From: Nitrosopumilus sp. | GTDB lineage: Archaea > Thermoproteota > Nitrososphaeria > Nitrososphaerales > Nitrosopumilaceae | NCBI GenBank assembly: GCA_965224195.1 | Contig: OZ245040.1 | Coordinates: forward strand, 1,248,001-1,312,000 | Length of the DNA: 64,000 nt | Reading direction: 5' to 3' | Position numbers and translations under genes: made by a program | Notes under the pieces: model-generated | Seen by the model: the letters and a program-made list of their open reading frames with translations, nothing else | Told to the model about the DNA's origin: nothing | Databases searched by the model: none | Shown here: positions 9,514-29,864 of the stretch, in pieces | Position numbering within the stretch: position 1 is the first letter of the stretch | How the letters are laid out: the number at the start of each line of letters is the position of its first letter

Positions 9514-10311
9514 ATGACTAAAGAAGAAATTAACACAAACCAAGATTTAGACAATACTGACCAACCTAATAATGTTGTAGATATGTTACTTAGTAAAAAT
9601 CAGATTCAAACTTTAGATTCTGAAACGATGATTTTAGAAACTCAAAAACGTGTTTGGGCTGCTCTGAAAAAAGGCTATGAGTATTCTGGATTAATTGATG
9701 AATCAGATGCATTTCTAAGAAAAAATGTTTTTTCAAAATTAGATATGGTTGTACTCTATGTGGATTTAGTAGGTTCTACCACGATGACATTGGAAATGCC
9801 TCCAGAAAAAATTGCAATCATTATAAGTTCATTTTCTCAAGAAATGGCAGCAGTAATTAGACAACATCACGGGTATGTTTTAAAATTTGTAGGAGATGCA
9901 GTTATTGGTTATTTTGTGGGTGAAGGGATGCATATAGGGGACAATGCTGTGAATTGTGCAAAGTCAATGATCTCAATTATTCAAAAAGGGATAAATCCAA
10001 TTCTAAACCAATATGATTATCCTGATTTGATGGTAAAGGTTGGAGTTGATTTTGGTCAAAACATCGTTGTAAGATATGGTGCAGATGTTGAACATTCTCA
10101 TGTGGATTTAATGGGTCCTGCAATGAATATTGCAGCTAAAATTCAAAACATGGCAAAACCAAATCAAATTTTGATAGGTAAGGATGTATTCGAAAGATTA
10201 CATCCTAGTTTTCAAAAAGATTTCAAACAAATAGTTTGGTCAAAAGGCGAATGGAAGTATCGTTCAAGAATTACAGGAGAAACCTACAATGTGTACGAAT
10301 TTAAAGGATGA
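9514..10311 (+). CDS. class III adenylate/guanylate cyclase domain protein
   Basis: YVDLVGST, LKFVGDAV, DLMGPAMNIAAKIQ. Confidence 0.9.
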   Translation: MTKEEINTNQDLDNTDQPNNVVDMLLSKNQIQTLDSETMILETQKRVWAALKKGYEYSGLIDESDAFLRKNVFSKLDMVVLYVDLVGSTTMTLEMPPEKIAIIISSFSQEMAAVIRQHHGYVLKFVGDAVIGYFVGEGMHIGDNAVNCAKSMISIIQKGINPILNQYDYPDLMVKVGVDFGQNIVVRYGADVEHSHVDLMGPAMNIAAKIQNMAKPNQILIGKDVFERLHPSFQKDFKQIVWSKGEWKYRSRITGETYNVYEFKG

Positions 10312-12756: not shown

Positions 12757-13075
12757 AGCAACATTAGCAGATTACCAAATGACAGGAAATAGTGCATCAT
12801 TGGCTAAGATTGGAGAAAAATTATTTACAATTACATTTGTAGAAGATTCCAATTATACTCAAGGAGAAGTCATTACCCAAGGGGTAAAGATCACAACTAA
12901 AGAAATGTTTGATGTAGATGGAAATCAAATGAATAAATTCCACACTACACATGCAGCCATAGTTAATAGATTCAAAAGGATGTTTGGTGAGTATGCCATG
13001 GCTCACAAAAGAAAATACATGATAAAAGAATTGGAATTAAAAGTTGAACTGTATAATCTATTTGCAAGTGTTTGA
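12757..13075 (+). pseudogene. degraded mobile-element-type gene at the left island edge
   Basis: GGAGGTGA RBS followed by an ATA (lost ATG?) near ATLADYQMTGN; the C-terminus appears to run into unrelated sequence. Confidence 0.4.
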
Positions 13076-13083
13076 GGGAATAA

Positions 13084-13254
13084 GATCAAAAGTTAGCTAG
13101 AAATGATTTGTTCGACAGAGTACAATTTGAGATAAAACCTGGCGTATTTACCAGTTACAAATATGCTTGGGATGAACCAAATCCTGAGACTTTCTCATAT
13201 TGGTCTCCAGCATATTGGTGGAATAGTTATACTGTCTGGTGGCATTTGAAATAG
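13084..13254 (+). pseudogene. orphan C-terminal fragment of a secreted EPNP..WW..WH family protein
   Basis: ...YAWDEPNPETFSYWSPAYWWNSYTVWWHLK*; matches the tail of the 28613-29439 gene. Confidence 0.65.
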
Positions 13255-13539
13255 ATGTTTAATACTATAACATCTAAAATCCTTCTTATTTTTTTAATAT
13301 CTGTAATACTTTTACCGCTCGGAGTCTGGTTGTATGTTTTTTCAATATTTCCATTAATCTCAGAATCTATATTATCAACAAATGCAGAGATAATATCATT
13401 CAAAGAAGAGCATGGTACATCTAATTTCGGGCATCATAAATCTGAGTTTATGTCATATGGAGATGATAAATGTACAATAACTGGTACTTTATCTCCTTGG
13501 AACTGGAATGTTGAGAATGTTATAGTGAAATGTGGTTAA
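13255..13539 (+). CDS. small single-TM protein (cassette partner)
   Basis: N-terminal TM, two Cys; ATG directly follows the fragment stop. Confidence 0.65.
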   Translation: MFNTITSKILLIFLISVILLPLGVWLYVFSIFPLISESILSTNAEIISFKEEHGTSNFGHHKSEFMSYGDDKCTITGTLSPWNWNVENVIVKCG

Positions 13540-13623: not shown

Positions 13624-13953
13624 TCATGTGTTGTAATAATGGTAAAAATATGCTATAATGATAGATGAAGCAGTAGAGAATAAGAGTAAAAGCTGTATCT
13701 TACTGAGCATTGTCTTTTTGTACATTTTTTTTGAAATAGTACAAAATGCAGCAAAATGTATTGCAAAAAATCCCAACAACAAAAAAGCACCGTAATATTG
13801 TTCTTCAAAAACCATATGAAACATATTGTAAGAATTTGTCAGCACATTAATGACTAAATAACCAGAATAAAATATTGTGCCCATACTGGTTATTAGAATT
13901 CCTAAAAATCCTAAAAATCGCCAATAAAAAAAAGAAGGGGTATGGTTTACCAT
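13624..13953 (-). CDS. small multi-TM protein (cassette partner)
   Basis: three hydrophobic helices; probable ATG at 13953 next to the upstream gene end. Confidence 0.6.
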   Translation of the reverse strand: MVNHTPSFFYWRFLGFLGILITSMGTIFYSGYLVINVLTNSYNMFHMVFEEQYYGAFLLLGFFAIHFAAFCTISKKMYKKTMLSKIQLLLLFSTASSIIIAYFYHYYNT

Positions 13954-13958
13954 GACCC

Positions 13959-14696
13959 CTAGAAAAACTTTGCAGTTACAGAGTACCAAGAATTTCCACC
14001 ATCAAAATTGGTAAAAGCATACGAACCATGTCTATCAGAATGATTAGAATCTGATGTTAGATTATGTTTGGTAGTTCCATATTGTATGTAGCCATCTTCC
14101 CATTCATGAGGTACAAAACACCAGTGGAGATAAAATGGACTAGCTTCCCAATTAACATCAACCACATTTGGTTTTACAGTTGCATCAAAAACAGCTTGAT
14201 TGAGATTAGAACATTCAGAGTATCCATCATGCAATTTTAATGTGTTAGGAGTACCATAATCTTTATCGTATAAAGATATTGCAGCTCCTCGGATATCAGA
14301 GTTCCCTGAACCACGTTTTACACGCTGCTCTTCACGATCAGTGAATGTTTCATCAATATCGAGTTTTTTATTTTTTAGAGCATATGTACCATCGTCATTT
14401 AGAGTAATTCTAAATGTTTCTGATGCTTCTAATGTATCATCAATTACAGTTGTTGTTTTGATTTTATACTGCGTATCAGATAGTTGTTTTGTCTTTGTTG
14501 TGACAGCTATTATTTTACCATCGATTATTTTTTGTTCTGTGTTTTTACCTGTAGTAGAGATTAGTTTTTCAATGTAATCTACTACTGCTGGATCATATGT
14601 TGCTTGTGTTTGTGCTGATGCATAATCCATTACAGAGAATGGAAGAATCATTACAGATATCAAACCAGCAAATAAGATTATTTTTGTATTTTTCAT
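13959..14696 (-). CDS. secreted protein with conserved K.I.FA..I..MILPFS.M.YA leader
   Basis: signal peptide, internal RVKR, aromatic-rich C-domain; TAG is followed by GSW-TAA (possible slightly premature stop). Confidence 0.75.
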   Translation of the reverse strand: MKNTKIILFAGLISVMILPFSVMDYASAQTQATYDPAVVDYIEKLISTTGKNTEQKIIDGKIIAVTTKTKQLSDTQYKIKTTTVIDDTLEASETFRITLNDDGTYALKNKKLDIDETFTDREEQRVKRGSGNSDIRGAAISLYDKDYGTPNTLKLHDGYSECSNLNQAVFDATVKPNVVDVNWEASPFYLHWCFVPHEWEDGYIQYGTTKHNLTSDSNHSDRHGSYAFTNFDGGNSWYSVTAKFF

Positions 14697-16123: not shown

Positions 16124-16708
16124 CTATTTACTAGGAGTTGACAGGAATTTCACGTCTCCATCATACCAAGCTTTTCGATCTATTGTGTAATAATCACCAG
16201 TATCAAGGGATTTACACAAGTCTGTTGCGCAATACACTTGCGTGTGTACAGGACTACCTCTGTTTATAACACCATGTATTGTACCAAAATGCCCACCAAA
16301 ATCCCTAACATCATAACACATTCTATCATTAGCCATAACACAACCAGACAAATCATAAAGTGTATTGTTATAAAGTCCAAGTTTTACAGGTTCAATATCA
16401 GCAAACTGTCCTGTAGATATAAATTTGAAGATTGTAATTCCATTAATAATTTCCTCAGTATAATTATAACGAGTACCATTCTTTAGAGATATGGAATATT
16501 CACCAGTTTTATTATCATGATATAAGTTACCAGGAGAAAAAGCCATAGAATAATAAGCCTCACCTGGCGGAAATTCAAATATTGAATAATCCACAGTTAA
16601 ATTATTGTGAGTTTGTTTACTTGATTGATCAAAAGAAGTTACAATGTATATTATAATTACAAATAAAACAAACAAACAAGTAATAACAAAATATTTTTTA
16701 TCCATCAA
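16124..16708 (-). CDS. membrane-anchored protein (partner of the protease)
   Basis: N-terminal TM, 4 Cys in the extracellular part; overlaps the protease stop. Confidence 0.7.
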   Translation of the reverse strand: MMDKKYFVITCLFVLFVIIIYIVTSFDQSSKQTHNNLTVDYSIFEFPPGEAYYSMAFSPGNLYHDNKTGEYSISLKNGTRYNYTEEIINGITIFKFISTGQFADIEPVKLGLYNNTLYDLSGCVMANDRMCYDVRDFGGHFGTIHGVINRGSPVHTQVYCATDLCKSLDTGDYYTIDRKAWYDGDVKFLSTPSK

Positions 16709-18866
16709 TTCCTGTCTTATTTACTATATTTTCCCAAGTGCTAAAAAATTTGAAATATGCCCCATGATCCTCTATACATTGTTCAAATACAGGGAATGTA
16801 TTAAAATCAGTTTGGTTTTCTAACTTGAATATACAAGCTTTACCCACATGTATACCAAGTATACGAGCATTGTAATCATCTAACATCTCAATAACAGGTG
16901 CTCCACTATCCCCCTTATAACTAGGATACACTGATAGAATCTGTTCATGATAAACATAATCACTATTTGTTTGGCTGAGTTGAAGAGTTACATTAGTATG
17001 AGCGATAAAACCCTTAGCCTGATTATATGCACCAATCATGAATATTTCATCATTTACACGTTCAACATCTTTAACACCACCAAACTGTGTAACATGAATG
17101 GTGTCAGTGCCGTTAAGTATTGTATGTTTTGTAGTAGGAATATTTGGATTTGATGGTATAAAAGCAGAATCAGCTTTGATTCCGATCAAATCAGAATCAC
17201 TAACAGGTCCAATATTTTCAGCAATTTTAATTGGGCCTAACTTTATACTAACACGTAAATCACCACTATTATCTACAACAAATCCTTTTGTAACATTTGT
17301 TGGTATCAAACCATGTGCAGACATGATAAACCCTGATATACCGTTCTTAGTAACAGGTAATGTTATTGTGGAAGGAACATCAGGATTTTTTGAGTTATCA
17401 AGTTGACCTTCATATCCTGGAAAATATAATAATAACTGACCACCATAAATACTATTATCTATGGATACAGGTTGCGTATATGTTGTGGATATTTTATCAT
17501 CATTTACATATGGTCCTATACAACCACCTGATTCACGTAATTGGATAGGACAAAACCCAGTAGTTTGATCTGTAGAGAATATACTAGTCTTATTTACTGA
17601 TGATGTAACTATAGGAGGTTTTGGTTTATCTACACATGTATTATTTTGTATAATCTGGCCAGATGGACATGATACCACAGTACACACACCGTTGCGCCAC
17701 TCTTCGTTACTAGCTGGACATCTATCAACACATGCATTACCTTGAAGTATCTGCGAGCCTGTACATGTTGGCATAGTTACCGGCACATTAACAACATCAG
17801 AGTAGAAATACTTGATGCTAGTACTGCCACGGTCATTGGTATAGTACAGCTTTATCTTTAGCTTGTAGTTTTTACCTTCATGTACATTTGATATGGTATA
17901 GGATGTGTCAGTAGATGATAGTTTACCTTTGTATACTGCATATCCACCGTCAATTGATACGTACATTTTGTAGTATCGTACGGTATAGTCAGTTGGCCTA
18001 TCCCATGATACTGTTATATCATCACCGGATTTTACGGTTTTAATATTTTGTAGTTCGTATGTTGGCACAATAACTGGCTTTGGTGGTGGTACTGATATAG
18101 TTCCGCTGTCAGTTGGCAGATCATATCCTGCATTTTTTATGATACTACTATATGTACCACATCGCTTGTACGTATTTCCACCTGTACATCTGTCCTGATA
18201 TAGTTTGTAATAGTAGCAAGTGTTACTTTTTGGTTCATCAGTACATGGGGATGTGCTAGTTTGTGTAGGAGGTGTAACTACAGGTGGGGTAAGTGTAGTT
18301 ACAGAGGCAGGTATTGGCACATGAAGTTGTATCATAGTTTTTTTGTATATCTCACATACCTTTTGGTATCCAGCCTTTACTGGCATACAGGAATTTTTGT
18401 ACCTGTCCTGCCATTGCTTTATCCTGTCTTGGGATGAATGTGACTCTGGTTGGAACTCTACATATTTTATCTCAACTGGTGCATCAATACCAAGTATCTC
18501 TTGTATCAGACCAGGCTCTATTGGAATATCAAAGTATGCAGCCATCGTATCAAGACCAACAACTAGTGTATCATCATCTATGTACACCATTGTAAGTGGG
18601 ATGTCAGGGCCTGTATACTGTTCTAGTGGGGTATCGTTTTGAGTTATCATTAGATTTGTTATTTCAGAGTGAGCTTGTTTTAACTCTGTCTCATTTGTCT
18701 CCCAGTTGCCATCCTTTGAGTAATCTGGATGGTCATCTTCAAACTCATTGTTTCCAGTAAATGTATCAGTATTGTCATCTCCTGGCTGCTGGTTTGCAAA
18801 TGCTCCGCCAGGGACAAGTAATATTAATGAAAAGACTACTGTTGCTGCCAGAAGATGAGGTTTCAT
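16698..18866 (-). CDS. secreted multidomain chymotrypsin-like (S1) serine protease with FN3 and Cys-rich modules
   Basis: signal peptide; TVSWDRP..Y FN3-like domain; CxxxQ..QxNxCVD repeats; IMSAHG, ADSAFI, GDSGAP triad. Confidence 0.8.
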   Translation of the reverse strand: MKPHLLAATVVFSLILLVPGGAFANQQPGDDNTDTFTGNNEFEDDHPDYSKDGNWETNETELKQAHSEITNLMITQNDTPLEQYTGPDIPLTMVYIDDDTLVVGLDTMAAYFDIPIEPGLIQEILGIDAPVEIKYVEFQPESHSSQDRIKQWQDRYKNSCMPVKAGYQKVCEIYKKTMIQLHVPIPASVTTLTPPVVTPPTQTSTSPCTDEPKSNTCYYYKLYQDRCTGGNTYKRCGTYSSIIKNAGYDLPTDSGTISVPPPKPVIVPTYELQNIKTVKSGDDITVSWDRPTDYTVRYYKMYVSIDGGYAVYKGKLSSTDTSYTISNVHEGKNYKLKIKLYYTNDRGSTSIKYFYSDVVNVPVTMPTCTGSQILQGNACVDRCPASNEEWRNGVCTVVSCPSGQIIQNNTCVDKPKPPIVTSSVNKTSIFSTDQTTGFCPIQLRESGGCIGPYVNDDKISTTYTQPVSIDNSIYGGQLLLYFPGYEGQLDNSKNPDVPSTITLPVTKNGISGFIMSAHGLIPTNVTKGFVVDNSGDLRVSIKLGPIKIAENIGPVSDSDLIGIKADSAFIPSNPNIPTTKHTILNGTDTIHVTQFGGVKDVERVNDEIFMIGAYNQAKGFIAHTNVTLQLSQTNSDYVYHEQILSVYPSYKGDSGAPVIEMLDDYNARILGIHVGKACIFKLENQTDFNTFPVFEQCIEDHGAYFKFFSTWENIVNKTGIDG

Positions 18867-28612: not shown

Positions 28613-29439
28613 TTGTATAAAAACGCAAAAACCATAGTATTTGCTTCGGTAATTGTGGCAATGATTCTGCCATTTTCTGGTATGAATTATGCATAAGCAA
28701 AAACAGATGAAACAAAATATAGCAAATCAGATGTTGACAAATCATTTAGGAATTCAGAAGGTTATGTCAGTTTTGAGAAAAAGGACAACCAAATGAAAGT
28801 AGACATTAGAAAAATGATCAACGATGGTCTAGATGCCAAAGATATCAAGATTATTGGAGCATGGGCAAAATTATACAACAATGTATGAAATCTTACATGA
28901 ATGGTGATAGAGAAGGAACTGGTGCTGCTTTAGCAAAAGCTGCTACGGGTCCTTTCAGTCATCTTACAAATGCTCAGACAACCGCAATAGGATCTAATGA
29001 TGGTAGTGTAAGTAATGCTTCTTACATCACTCCTGTTAATTATTGGTCTTTGTCTGCTTGTGGAATCACTTATGGTTCTAATGATCATCCAGAACCTCCA
29101 ATTGAAATTGGATTGCATGATTATTACAGTCTATCTTCTGCACAATCAGAATTAGCAAGTTCAGGATATTATCAAGTTCAATGGCCTTGGATTGATGTTG
29201 GCGATGATGGTAAAGTCTATGCCAAAATAAATACAACAGGTTATGGTGATTGTGATAATGGTGAATTTAGAGATGAAAATCATATCTACGATACGTATCA
29301 TGTCAAAGTAGATAATGTGTGGTATGAACCTGTTCTAAGTTTAATACAGGTAAATGAGCCAAACCCTGATCTGAATGCTTATTCTGCTCCAACCTTCTGG
29401 TGAGATGTTTACGTTGCTGCTTGGCATTATAGCAACTAA
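28613..29439 (+). pseudogene. secreted protein, MILPFS leader and EPNP..WW..WH tail
   Basis: KTIVFASVIVAMILPFSGMNYA*A; TAA at 28694, frameshift near 28885, TGA at 29401. Confidence 0.8.
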
Positions 29440-29455
29440 CCTCTTTTTTTTTATT

Positions 29456-29778
29456 TTGAAAAAATAATATTAATTCCAATTGGAATTTTAATTTTCATGG
29501 TGATTATGTTTAGTCTTGTATTGATTGCAAATTATGTACCCTACAAAACTTGGGGAAGTAATGAACACTATTATTTACCACAAGATGGTTTTGAAGTGAC
29601 TTGTGATTATATGCCGTTACAAAAACCAACTAATTGTAGATTCGTAACATCTCAGGCTGTCCATCACATATGCTGGAATTTCTGTGTTACAAAAACCAAC
29701 TAATTGTAGACCCGTAACATCCGATAATAATTTTCCGGATGTTGAAGCAGACACTATCACCATATCCCCAAAACTATA
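29456..29778 (+). pseudogene. small single-TM partner protein, disrupted
   Basis: TM segment; start out of frame in an A-run; 70-bp duplication/insertion. Confidence 0.55.
29616..29721 (+). repeat. 36-bp direct repeat x2 with a 34-bp intervening segment
   Basis: GTTACAAAAACCAACTAATTGTAGA(TT/CC)CGTAACATC at 29616 and 29686. Confidence 0.9.
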
Positions 29779-29864
29779 AAAATCATAAAAACTAAAGAAT
29801 ATTGAAAGGCTCGGTTAATGATTCAAATCATTTTCATGGTGAATCAATAGTGCACGCGGCTCAT

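Follow-up and report, generated by a model that had tools for sequence, protein, structure and literature searches.

Sequence evidence places two tryptophan-rich tails of a Nitrosopumilus genome in decayed paralogs of an unnamed, widespread family of exported proteins

Introduction

Why an unannotated reading frame and a pseudogene, lying apart on an archaeal chromosome, should end in the same tryptophan-rich pattern is the question raised by this locus. The window analysed here is a stretch of 64,000 nucleotides from Nitrosopumilus sp. (contig OZ245040.1, positions 1,248,001 to 1,312,000). The host is an ammonia-oxidising archaeon with a genome of 2.07 Mb, a GC content of 33.6%, and an amoA gene. 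An earlier note, made from the letters of the window, had claimed that the two tails are relics of homologous exported proteins and had suggested that the tail itself could be a membrane-active peptide, an anchor, or a sorting signal. Herein, we follow the tails to their family, describe their decay, and weigh what the family may do.

Results

The two tails match each other and an intact paralog

The frame 13084-13254 (+) ends in ...YAWDEPNPETFSYWSPAYWWNSYTVWWHLK and a stop codon. When X is written for the TGA at 29401-29403, the frame 28810-29439 (+) ends in ...VNEPNPDLNAYSAPTFWXDVYVAAWHYSN and a stop codon. Translation bore out the shared pattern that the earlier note had described at these positions, since the spacing EPNP-x4-Y-x2-P-x2-W(W)-x2-Y-x3-WH is the same in both tails. 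A tblastn search of the whole genome with tail 1 recovered tail 2, at 40% identity over 25 aa (E 0.001), as well as an intact third copy, at 53% identity over 34 aa (E 3e-8). This intact paralog, P0002, has 443 aa and is encoded at genome position 1543362-1544693 on the minus strand, about 266 kb from the window copies. A family profile of 87 members, neither relic included, matched relic 1 at E 2.5e-9 and pseudogene 2 at E 2.5e-29 and 1.3e-13, one match per frame, in a genome-wide search. By these sequence matches, each tail is the 3' end of a dead gene, and the two genes are paralogs within an unnamed, widespread family of exported proteins. The features are listed in Table 1.

Table 1. Positions of the relics, their lesions, and the adjoining features in the window
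Feature	Position	Strand	Remark
Insertion sequence fragment	12967..13122	+	Last ~155 bp of the element; 14 blastn copies at 87-93% identity
Relic 1	13123..13254	+	Last 43 codons and stop of a family gene, QFEIKPGVFTSYKYAWDEPNPETFSYWSPAYWWNSYTVWWHLK then stop
Junction contig X4	13094-13325		No differences
Junction contig X5	13085-13261		No differences
Partner ORF, 94 aa, intact	13255..13539	+	ATG directly after the TAG of relic 1
Pseudogene 2	28613..29439	+	Family gene at full length, from the signal peptide and helical N-domain to the C-domain and its tail
Lesion: in-frame stop	28694-28696	+	Seen in translation
Lesion: frameshift	between about 28864 and 28891	+	tblastn with intact relatives
Lesion: TGA	29401-29403	+	Trp column of close relatives
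Partner remnant of pseudogene 2, Nitrosopumilales type	29440..29703	+	After a T10 tract

Relic 1 is a gene end cut off by an insertion sequence

Only part of the frame that the earlier note had taken as one unit belongs to the family. Its tail does, but its first 13 codons (DQKLARNDLFDRV) are the end of an insertion sequence, which stops at 13122, and the true relic is therefore 13123-13254. The insertion sequence fragment consists of the 3' end of a transposase frame and a terminal repeat ending in ...gttcgacagagta, and blastn found three weaker copies in the genome besides the 14 listed. In the alignment, the copies have their last base in common and diverge beyond it, and the other copies are alike further upstream too. 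Relic 1 has no start codon, no signal peptide, and lacks the first two thirds of the domain. It covers positions 221-254 of the 257 in the profile, and the genome-wide profile search found no match to the rest of the profile near it. It is thus a fragment of a family member, truncated at 13123, rather than a whole member, and as read from the sequence it was shortened to its 43 codons by the insertion sequence. In the contigs of two other public runs the junction between insertion sequence and relic 1 showed no differences, so it is not an artefact of one assembly. The window from 12.7 to 29.7 kb is crowded with transposase fragments.

Pseudogene 2 carries three lesions

The TGA to which the earlier note had drawn attention is indeed a lesion of pseudogene 2, but it is not the sole one, because an in-frame stop and a frameshift were also seen. 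By tblastn, seven of eight intact relatives mapped to frame 1 until between 28879 and 28969, and all eight mapped to frame 3, with matches starting at 28864-29038 and ending at 29427-29436. Among the eight, P0046 matched best, with 39-53% identity and an E-value of 5e-57. Where pseudogene 2 has the TGA, the closest of the intact relatives have TFWWDVY or TFWWAVY; since the column holds Trp, a mutated TGG, as had been proposed, is the simplest reading. Reassignment or readthrough of TGA was considered and rejected for two reasons: pseudogene 2 is broken elsewhere by a TAA-type stop and a frameshift, and the intact paralog can be read without any recoding.

The motifs of the C-domain are present in pseudogene 2 (SACGITYGSNDHP, SGYYQV, KVYAKI, and GDCDNGEFRD), with Asp as the fifth residue of the tail motif and one Trp codon being TGA. 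Its N-terminus (..KNAKTIVFASVIVAMILPFSGMNYA) is signal-peptide-like, as in P0046, P0083, and the intact paralog, which agrees with the proposal that both tails are what remains of homologous exported proteins. What is probably a fourth stub (..WPVWWWGVYVYNWHN and stop) lies at approximately genome position 1517060, with a hydrophobic ORF and an insertion sequence behind it. The neighbouring secreted protein of 245 aa (13959-14696, -) was tried as a family member and rejected: its C-terminus differs, its likeness is confined to the signal-peptide region, and the family profile gave E 0.04 over profile positions 2-113.

The family is widespread, patchy, and often broken

Further homologs were sought and found in number, with 193 cluster representatives from bacteria and archaea at E ≤ 1e-3 and 51 at E ≤ 1e-10, and the domain they share is not a characterised one. 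The C-domain match reached the end of the protein in all 150 matches listed, and the N-termini differed (coiled coil, Ig-like, DUF4114). The motif lay within the last 70 residues of 143 of 153 proteins, 109 of these 143 stopping 3-4 residues beyond W-H, and an N-terminal hydrophobic segment was detected in 90 of the 143 by a hydropathy test. A family protein begins with a signal peptide and a helical N-domain, which a disordered linker joins to an alpha+beta domain of ~120 aa at the C-terminus. This C-domain carries the motifs CG..PHP, GY[HY], D[YF].K, C..G.FR.Q, EPNPE, and W..Y..WWH, and its conserved Cys pair, Cys326 and Cys393 of P0002, probably forms a disulfide. Among 87 sequences, C393, R399, Y425, W439, and H440 (P0002 numbering) are invariant, and C326, G361, H363, D380, F398, E417, P418, N419, P420, E421, P428, W432, and Y435 are at least 90% conserved. 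H363 is Tyr in the subfamily of pseudogene 2, so that this residue is not essential.

The distribution is patchy, covering Chloroflexota, Actinomycetota, Cyanobacteria, candidate-phyla-radiation bacteria, DPANN archaea, and Nitrososphaeria. Within the class, the family was found in 18 of 251 genomes, and in 6 of 36 genomes sampled from the genus. Carriers often had more than one copy, and the copies were often broken. Among the 27 matches in these 251 genomes that reach the C-terminal end, 12 were full-length and open, 9 had in-frame stops, and 6 were C-terminal-only. One genome (G007, locus L007) carries two tandem 5'-truncated tails with a small membrane ORF after each and a transposase adjoining.

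Searches of curated collections returned no family that accounts for the domain. In Pfam, no family covering conserved domains matched the 87 members, the single-member rows shown being of coiled-coil type and below the cut-off, and 20 long members gave just the N-terminal DUF4114, SIBA-E_N, and He_PIG near or below the cut-off. NCBIfam matched none of 10 family proteins, and PADLOC and PHROGs matched none of seven, save for coiled-coil noise in P0002; across Pfam, NCBIfam, PADLOC, and PHROGs, no known toxin, enzyme, or immunity family was hit. There was no real match among PDB sequences and no usable match in the ESM Atlas, and tblastn found no match to a Brevibacterium family member in plasmids or to the intact paralog in phages. 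The source names of 10 clusters were "hypothetical protein" or none. In the text portions accessible to a full-text literature search, nothing was returned on an EPNPE...WWH family, including from the literature on archaeal polymorphic toxins and immunity. The accessible part of PMC12352652, on archaeal peptidoglycan hydrolases, deals with Pfam-known hydrolases and has no mention of Nitrosopumilus or immunity, and that of PMC6393860 contains nothing bearing on the family.

The tail is predicted to lie in the core of a folded domain

AlphaFold2 gave a pLDDT of 84.8 and a pTM of 0.79 for a 259-aa model, and 93.0 and 0.85 for a 128-aa model of the domain alone, whose elements follow the order strand-helix-helix-strand-strand-strand-helix. 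In the models the tail forms the last beta-strand (ending in EP), an NPE turn, and the final helix (WWxxYVxWWH). The tail blocks reach a pLDDT of 93-98 across the two models and of 96-98 in the 128-aa model, where the strand spans residues 96-103 and the helix, after the turn, residues 117-127. By these predictions the tail is part of the folded domain core, not a detachable peptide. Among solved folds, the best Z for the C-domain was 4.6, with no chain at Z 5 among 48,161 representatives; the matches of the whole 259-aa model were dominated by the helical N-domain (Z ≤ 4.9), and the best hit in a viral predicted-fold library had an E-value of 0.15. The result is a confident structural model with no solved relative. 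We place high confidence in the homology and fold part of our explanation.

A small membrane-anchored partner is frequently encoded downstream

The intact ORF after relic 1 (13255-13539), which we recommend annotating as a likely real gene, encodes a protein with a hydrophobic helix at its N-terminus and two Cys in a tail of ~55 aa. A search of 120 further genomes from the genus gave a single homolog (in G009; 26% identity, E 2.9e-9), which is also located directly downstream of a family pseudogene, and the ORF had no match in Pfam, PADLOC, or PHROGs. The remnant after pseudogene 2 clusters with the family-gene partners in loci L047, L063, L073, L075, and L079 (BLASTP E ≤ 1e-3). Of the ORFs in it that have a start codon, the longest (29497-29703, 68 aa) opens within the hydrophobic helix, and the remnant is much shorter than the 309-aa relative in L047.

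We scored as a partner any ORF of 60-320 aa with an N-terminal hydrophobic segment that starts from -80 to +200 nt downstream. Such an ORF followed 34 of 54 family ORFs and 79 of 578 control ORFs (odds ratio 10.7), a comparison whose p-value is overstated because some of the controls, mechanically called frames from the same loci, are spurious and related loci are not independent. By the same criterion, 20 of the 54 family ORFs had no such ORF downstream. The partners, about 75-165 aa in size, fall into at least six unrelated clusters plus singletons (BLASTP E ≤ 1e-3), and they were the only neighbour families common to several loci (bacterial type A, 29/76; Nitrosopumilales type, 8). Several type-A partners have lipoprotein-like N-termini. 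In 60 metagenome loci with at least 500 nt upstream of a type-A partner, a family gene was present upstream in 3 and absent in 57, and no other conserved neighbour took its place. Viewed from the partner, the association with the family is weak. The 57 partners without a family gene fit orphan immunity genes, but they fit just as well a widely occurring membrane protein that frequently happens to be a neighbour.

Discussion

The question posed by the locus can be answered at two levels. At the level of homology, two unannotated or pseudogene stretches of the window are explained as insertion-sequence-driven decay, with 13123-13254 to be annotated as a gene fragment, and a domain family of 193 cluster representatives is defined that is absent from Pfam, NCBIfam, and PDB. 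At the level of function, we tentatively propose, at somewhat under even odds, that the family protein is a secreted effector with an immunity-like partner. The domain would be an extracellular effector, most likely an enzyme, with an active site formed by the conserved R399, E417, E421, Y425, and terminal H440; since no solved or viral predicted fold was matched, it is solely the pattern of conserved polar residues that suggests an enzyme. The co-encoded small membrane-anchored, outward-facing protein would act on its cognate effector as an immunity protein or inhibitor. The frequent decay, the retention of a partner gene behind tail-only stubs, the patchy spread, and the fast-changing partners fit a toxin-immunity-like competition cassette. 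The explanation as a whole, including the dead paralogs, the tail in the domain core, and the effector-immunity mechanism, is given a probability of roughly 0.4.

A more specific version, which we consider rather unlikely, is a diffusible, Sec-exported toxin of new fold, countered by outward-facing membrane immunity proteins that evolve fast and are each lineage's own. The toxin domain would be common to ammonia-oxidising archaea, DPANN archaea, Chloroflexota, Actinomycetota, and others, and the tail-plus-partner stubs would be orphan immunity modules, kept as protection from the toxins of neighbours. If true, this would be the first protein toxin-immunity system described for ammonia-oxidising archaea. 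To our knowledge, very little is known about how these archaea compete. The effector mechanism, if correct, would bear on their competition and would imply an unrecognised secreted effector family with an apparently unmatched fold, in which the same weapon moves between archaea and bacteria.

Two alternatives concern the tails themselves. Had the pair been all there was, an E-value of 0.001 across 25 residues would leave room for a chance likeness of low-complexity aromatic sequence in non-coding DNA; with the profile E-values of both relics, the alignment of the full length of pseudogene 2 to eight intact relatives, and a motif common to the 193 representatives, the chance of this is negligible. 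It is also very improbable that the tail is an autonomous C-terminal module, be it a membrane-active peptide, a membrane anchor, or a sorting signal for a processing enzyme, as the earlier note had surmised. Trp and Tyr, in which the tail is rich, favour membrane interfaces, the motif sits near the C-terminus in nearly all of the 153 family proteins, and tail-only fragments recur across several genomes. However, the tail is modelled as a strand, turn, and helix packed in a compact domain, and the conserved residues span the whole 120 aa of that domain. None of 143 family tails contained a hydrophobic stretch (19-residue window, Kyte-Doolittle ≥ 1.6, last 40 residues), so that an anchor or sorting signal is unsupported, and the maximum hydropathy of relic 1 was -0.38. 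Moreover, no basic cluster follows the motif, no conserved sortase-like gene adjoins the family gene, and the tail-only fragments carry no signal peptide, so they could not be exported.

Other alternatives leave the folded domain in place and change its role. The protein could be an extracytoplasmic enzyme or binding protein of the housekeeping type, serving envelope remodelling or nutrient or metal acquisition, with the downstream membrane protein as its anchor, regulator, or folding helper and the window copies as dispensable paralogs that fell to insertion-sequence activity. A signal peptide, a prodomain-like helical domain, a linker, and a compact disulfide domain would suit such a protein, as would the lack of secretion-system and toxin markers nearby and the predominance of type-A partners with no family gene; in a region so filled with transposase fragments, decay may be unselective. 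We regard this as doubtful, because a family present in so few genomes of the class and genus, often multicopy and often broken, is unusual for housekeeping, because lineages differ in unrelated partner families, which is unexpected of a dedicated folding helper or anchor, and because stubs have repeatedly retained the partner gene. A non-enzymatic domain that binds, for example, copper or another metal, or a glycan of the cell surface, is improbable. Ammonia oxidisers depend on copper and the host is one of them, and H363, D380, E417, E421, and H440 together with the many aromatics could be ligands or a binding face; but the Tyr in place of H363 in one subfamily, the invariant R399, which is atypical for a metal site, and the rarity and patchiness of the family in ammonia oxidisers, set against its frequency in unrelated bacteria, all speak against it.

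In the PGF-CTERM/archaeosortase, PEP-CTERM/exosortase, and LPXTG/sortase systems, the motif precedes a hydrophobic stretch that spans the membrane and, after it, a basic end. The family resembles them in having a short conserved motif at the extreme C-terminus of exported proteins. However, a hydrophobic helix or basic end follows the motif in 0 of 143 proteins, the motif lies inside a predicted folded domain and not in a linker, and a sortase-like neighbour is not conserved at the loci. LipA/Lif-type pairs consist of a lipase and its membrane-anchored foldase. There, as here, the gene of a secreted protein is followed by that of an N-terminally anchored, outward-facing protein, whereas the partners of the family are much smaller, belong to several unrelated families, and, like the family itself, match no lipase or foldase family.

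Barnase/RNase Sa and RelE/YoeB are small ribonucleases or ribonuclease-like toxins with a catalytic Glu, Arg, and near-C-terminal His. In the family domain, Arg is invariant, Glu is conserved, and a His stands 3-4 residues before the C-terminus; its predicted order of elements resembles that of the RelE type. The structural matches were at noise level, with Foldseek E-values of 1.2 for RNase Sa2 and 1.6 for HigB2 and Z-scores of 2.8 for CdiA-CT and 3.0 for RnlA, and the partner of the family would face outward, unlike the cytoplasmic inhibitors of small ribonucleases.

Polymorphic toxins have a conserved N-terminal trafficking part and variable C-terminal toxin tips, and those of the CDI and Rhs type were reportedly found by Zhang and colleagues in 2012 to leave displaced orphan modules of toxin tip and immunity gene. 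The family is the reverse, with a conserved C-terminal domain and a varying N-terminus; upstream of its stubs there are just transposases and no full-length gene, and dedicated secretion-system genes are absent near its genes. The likeness is in the 5'-truncated 3' ends that stand with a small partner, alone or in tandem, as in relic 1, locus L007, and the fourth stub.

Colicin M with Cmi, and periplasmic type VI effectors with lipoprotein immunity, combine a secreted effector with a membrane-anchored or lipoprotein immunity gene. The family has no sequence or fold relation to these toxin and immunity families and no uptake or delivery domain. In organisation it is like such bacteriocin and periplasmic effector pairs: directly behind the gene of an exported protein, and often overlapping it, comes a small co-oriented gene whose product is membrane-anchored or lipoprotein-like and would face outward, the family is patchy with several paralogs and frequent decay, and partner genes also occur apart from the gene of the putative effector.

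Two decayed genes with a shared tail

The frame 13084-13254 (+) terminates with YAWDEPNPETFSYWSPAYWWNSYTVWWHLK and a stop, and the frame closing at 29439 with VNEPNPDLNAYSAPTFWXDVYVAAWHYSN and a stop, where X is an in-frame TGA; the conserved residues are spaced identically in both. Compared with each other in a whole-genome search, the two tails matched at 40% over 25 residues (E 0.001), a pair that would be weak by itself. A third copy on the minus strand of the genome (1543362-1544693), an open gene of 443 codons encoding the intact paralog P0002, matched the first tail at 53% over 34 residues (E 3e-8) and pseudogene 2 at 31.5% over 130 residues (E 7e-11). When the genome was searched with a profile of 87 family members, neither relic among them, relic 1 was recovered at E 2.5e-9 and pseudogene 2 at E 2.5e-29 and 1.3e-13, one match per frame. 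Thus, the Trp-rich tail that the earlier note had seen in both places reflects true homology and not chance.

Pseudogene 2 was mapped by tblastn with eight intact relatives. Seven of them placed its signal peptide and N-domain in frame 1, reaching 28879 to 28969, and all eight placed the remainder in frame 3, from 28864-29038 to 29427-29436. At the site of the TGA, close intact relatives have TFWWDVY or TFWWAVY, so that its proposed origin from TGG is well supported.

For relic 1, the sequence at 12967-13122 recurs at 14 further places in the genome with 87-93% identity and at three weaker ones. The aligned copies stop at one base (window 13122, after gttcgacagagta) and are unrelated beyond it, and the other copies remain similar further upstream, indicating that this stretch is the right end of an insertion sequence, here reduced to its last ~155 bp. 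Within the frame 13084-13254, the tail stands as originally described, whereas the first 13 codons (DQKLARNDLFDRV) belong to the insertion-sequence end. Contigs from two other public runs show an identical junction. By itself, the finding in the window is ordinary gene decay through an insertion sequence and point lesions; the interest lies in the family behind these copies.

Window coordinates of relic 1, the lesions of pseudogene 2 and neighbouring genes
Feature	Position	Strand	Remark
265-aa protein	9514-10311	+	adenylate/guanylate cyclase catalytic domain, E 1.4e-13
Relic 1, family-derived part	13123-13254	+	43 codons plus stop
Intact 94-aa ORF of partner layout	13255-13539	+	directly behind relic 1
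121-aa multi-pass membrane ORF	13624-13989	-	overlaps the end of the 245-aa gene by 31 nt
245-aa protein	13959-14696	-	same kind of signal peptide (MKNTKIILFAGLISVMILPFSVMDYASA); C-terminus unrelated to the family
DDE_Tnp_4 transposase gene, 303 aa	14819-15730	+	Pfam
722-aa protein	16698-18866	-	one weak fibronectin type III match
Pseudogene 2, stop	28694-28696	+	directly after signal peptide
Pseudogene 2, frameshift	between about 28864 and 28891	+	tblastn frames
Pseudogene 2, TGA	29401-29403	+	translation

A widespread but patchy family of exported proteins

A word-indexed search returned only three relatives. An exhaustive search with P0002 residues 185-443 detected 193 cluster representatives at E <= 1e-3, showing that the tail motif has further homologs; 51 of them reached E <= 1e-10 and five, including the query itself, E <= 1e-30. 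The match extended to the protein end in every one of the 150 matches listed. The motif lay within the last 70 residues in 143 of 153 proteins, 109 of which ended 3-4 residues past W-H (longest extension, 21 residues), and 90 of the 143 began with a hydrophobic segment that would fit a signal peptide. Over 87 sequences, C393, R399, Y425, W439 and H440 (P0002 numbering) are invariant, and conservation is 90% or higher at C326, G361, H363, D380, F398, E417, P418, N419, P420, E421, P428, W432 and Y435. The Cys count was even in the members inspected, which fits disulfides in an exported protein.

Pfam contained no family over the conserved domains of any of the 87 members, and gave single-member matches only, those shown being of coiled-coil type and below the cut-off. 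There were no matches in NCBIfam (ten proteins), in PADLOC and PHROGs (seven proteins) or among PDB sequences. The source names were 'hypothetical protein' or none, and literature searches found no printed description of the family.

Public genome records with the family are titled as bacteria (Anaerolineales, Caldilineaceae, Dehalococcoidia, Brevibacterium, Cellulomonas, Thermoleophilaceae, cyanobacteria, Elusimicrobia, Acidobacteriota, Saccharimonadia and Gracilibacteria) and archaea (Iainarchaeum, Micrarchaeota, Methanophagales, Nitrososphaera, Cenarchaeum and Nitrosopumilus). The window's genome carries archaeal amoA, indicating an ammonia-oxidising host. Among its relatives the distribution is patchy: 6/36 sampled genomes of the genus, 0/24 from other families of the order, and 18/251 of the class, the window's own counted. 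One genome placed in the same genus, G031, has three full-length family genes, and its family loci (L003, L009, L015 and L020) are G+C-rich, at about 68% as measured for L020 and visibly so for the others. With 33.6% in the window's genome, this is a striking spread within one genus.

The tail is part of a predicted domain

The family proteins are exported and consist of two domains. AlphaFold2 modelled P0002 185-443 (110 sequences; pLDDT 84.8, pTM 0.79) as a helical N-domain joined to a C-domain by a linker of low confidence. Modelled alone, the C-domain (128 residues, 127 sequences; numbered as P0002 residue minus 315) reached pLDDT 93.0 and pTM 0.85, with the order strand 25-29, helix 35-44, helix 58-64, strands 65-69, 83-89 and 96-103, and helix 117-127. 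In this model, the last strand finishes with E417-P418 and leads through a turn made of N419-P420-E421 into the final helix, WWPSYVQWWHA. The tail makes up about one third of the C-domain and is integral to this predicted compact domain; judging from helix periodicity, it would supply the aromatic core. None of 143 tails contained a membrane-spanning stretch, which, together with the predicted position inside the domain, argues against a free peptide and against the anchor or sorting signal considered in the earlier note. An anchor or sorting signal is now very improbable.

Structure comparisons found no relative. Foldseek searches of the PDB gave E 0.22 and 0.37 at best, and VIA-align comparisons with 48,161 chains peaked at Z 4.9 (helical part) and Z 4.6 (C-domain); the top Foldseek chains reached Z 4.6 at best when re-compared, and the best viral predicted structure had E 0.15. 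No known fold stands out, and a weak or absent match is no proof of a new fold.

Decayed copies lie among insertion sequences

Class-wide, the 27 profile matches extending to the C-terminal end comprised 12 full-length open genes, nine with in-frame stops and six C-terminal-only copies. Outside the window, a stub at genome C1:~1517060-1517128 (+) reads YLWPVWWWGVYVYNWHN followed by two stops; its profile E is only 0.28, its match to the tail consensus is plain, and it is probably a fourth, very short relic. It is followed by a 61-aa hydrophobic frame. A near-identical copy of the window's DDE_Tnp_4 gene lies beside it (C1:1517320-1518231, -), and one type of element thus flanks two decayed family copies. 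Transposase genes and fragments (DDE_Tnp_4, HTH_Tnp_4 and a weak IS240 match) abound at 12.7-29.7 kb of the window; the cyclase-domain and 722-aa proteins sit between ordinary genes and this stretch. Around P0002 (locus L001) there are mutually similar transposase-like ORFs of 246 and 148 aa (L001 5108-6456, - strand; genome C1:~1545100-1546460) and another fragment (L001 2208-2450), so the surviving copy too lies in insertion-sequence-rich DNA.

In another genome, G007, two 5'-truncated family tails lie in tandem behind an IS630-like transposase gene (L007, G007:C1:1833584-1836745). Each tail has its own small membrane ORF, and the block has an inverted twin, L011, about 14 kb apart. Stubs retaining a partner gene thus recur in relic 1, G007 and the stub at ~1517060. 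We infer that the tail is kept along with the partner because the partner start sits at or within the end of the family gene.

A membrane-protein gene often follows the family gene

Only two ORF families were common to many of 76 genome loci, the family gene itself (63 loci) and the small downstream type A gene of bacteria (29 loci); a Nitrosopumilales-type partner was common to eight. By a mechanical criterion (an ORF of 60-320 aa with an N-terminal hydrophobic segment, -80 to +200 nt downstream), such an ORF followed 34/54 family ORFs and 79/578 other ORFs of the same loci, the control frames being partly spurious and related loci non-independent. The downstream membrane-protein gene is therefore non-random. 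The 44 candidates formed clusters of 18, 6, 4, 3, 2 and 2 plus nine singletons, and searches of Pfam, PADLOC and PHROGs gave nothing beyond two weak sub-significance matches. Type A proteins have an outward-facing domain of ~90 aa that contains two invariant Cys and ends in FFG[VI]P..L.N, and several have lipoprotein-like N-termini. Nitrosopumilales partners overlap the tail by 29-59 nt; their seemingly conserved start, M-x-N-G-G-M, simply reflects Y-V-x-W-W-H read in the +1 frame.

The ORF behind relic 1 in the window has a single homolog among 120 further genomes of the genus, likewise behind a family pseudogene. Pseudogene 2 is followed by a T10 tract and a degraded Nitrosopumilales-type partner, where nearly one peptide occurs in two frames at 29640-29779 (+; LQKPTNCRFVTSQ and LQKPTNCRPVTSD), which suggests a short local duplication within the decayed gene. 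A second cassette of like layout, convergent to relic 1 (13624-14696, - strand), had no significant Pfam match.

The association was also surveyed from the partner side in 79 metagenome loci with the best type A matches, 60 of which had at least 500 nt upstream, the remaining 19 being too short to judge. The family gene was upstream in 3/60 and absent in 57/60, and no other conserved neighbour appeared in its place. Type A is thus a much larger family whose members mostly stand alone, which speaks against a tight two-gene module. The solitary genes fit equally well with orphan immunity genes and with a common, unrelated membrane protein that often lies next to the family gene.

Possible function and comparison with known systems

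Our tentative reading, with a probability of roughly 0.35-0.4, is a competition cassette. The family protein would act outside the cell as an effector, probably as an enzyme that relies on R399, E417 and/or E421, Y425 and H440, and the outward-facing membrane partner would neutralise it. H363 is non-essential, since Tyr replaces it in the subfamily of pseudogene 2. The main rival is an extracytoplasmic enzyme or binder without an antagonistic role, whose partner would be an anchor or regulator; we consider it only somewhat less likely. A ribonuclease-like domain would be a further lead: the order of elements resembles that of RelE-type toxins and a His lies next to the C-terminus, but the structure searches gave nothing in its favour above noise level.

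If the competition cassette holds, its gene layout would resemble that of secreted bacteriocins or periplasmic effectors whose immunity proteins are anchored in the membrane, and the stubs may be likened to the orphan modules of polymorphic toxin systems. Wherever membership in a named family could be judged, the proteins did not belong. The C-terminus is their conserved part, so they fall outside the definition of polymorphic toxins.
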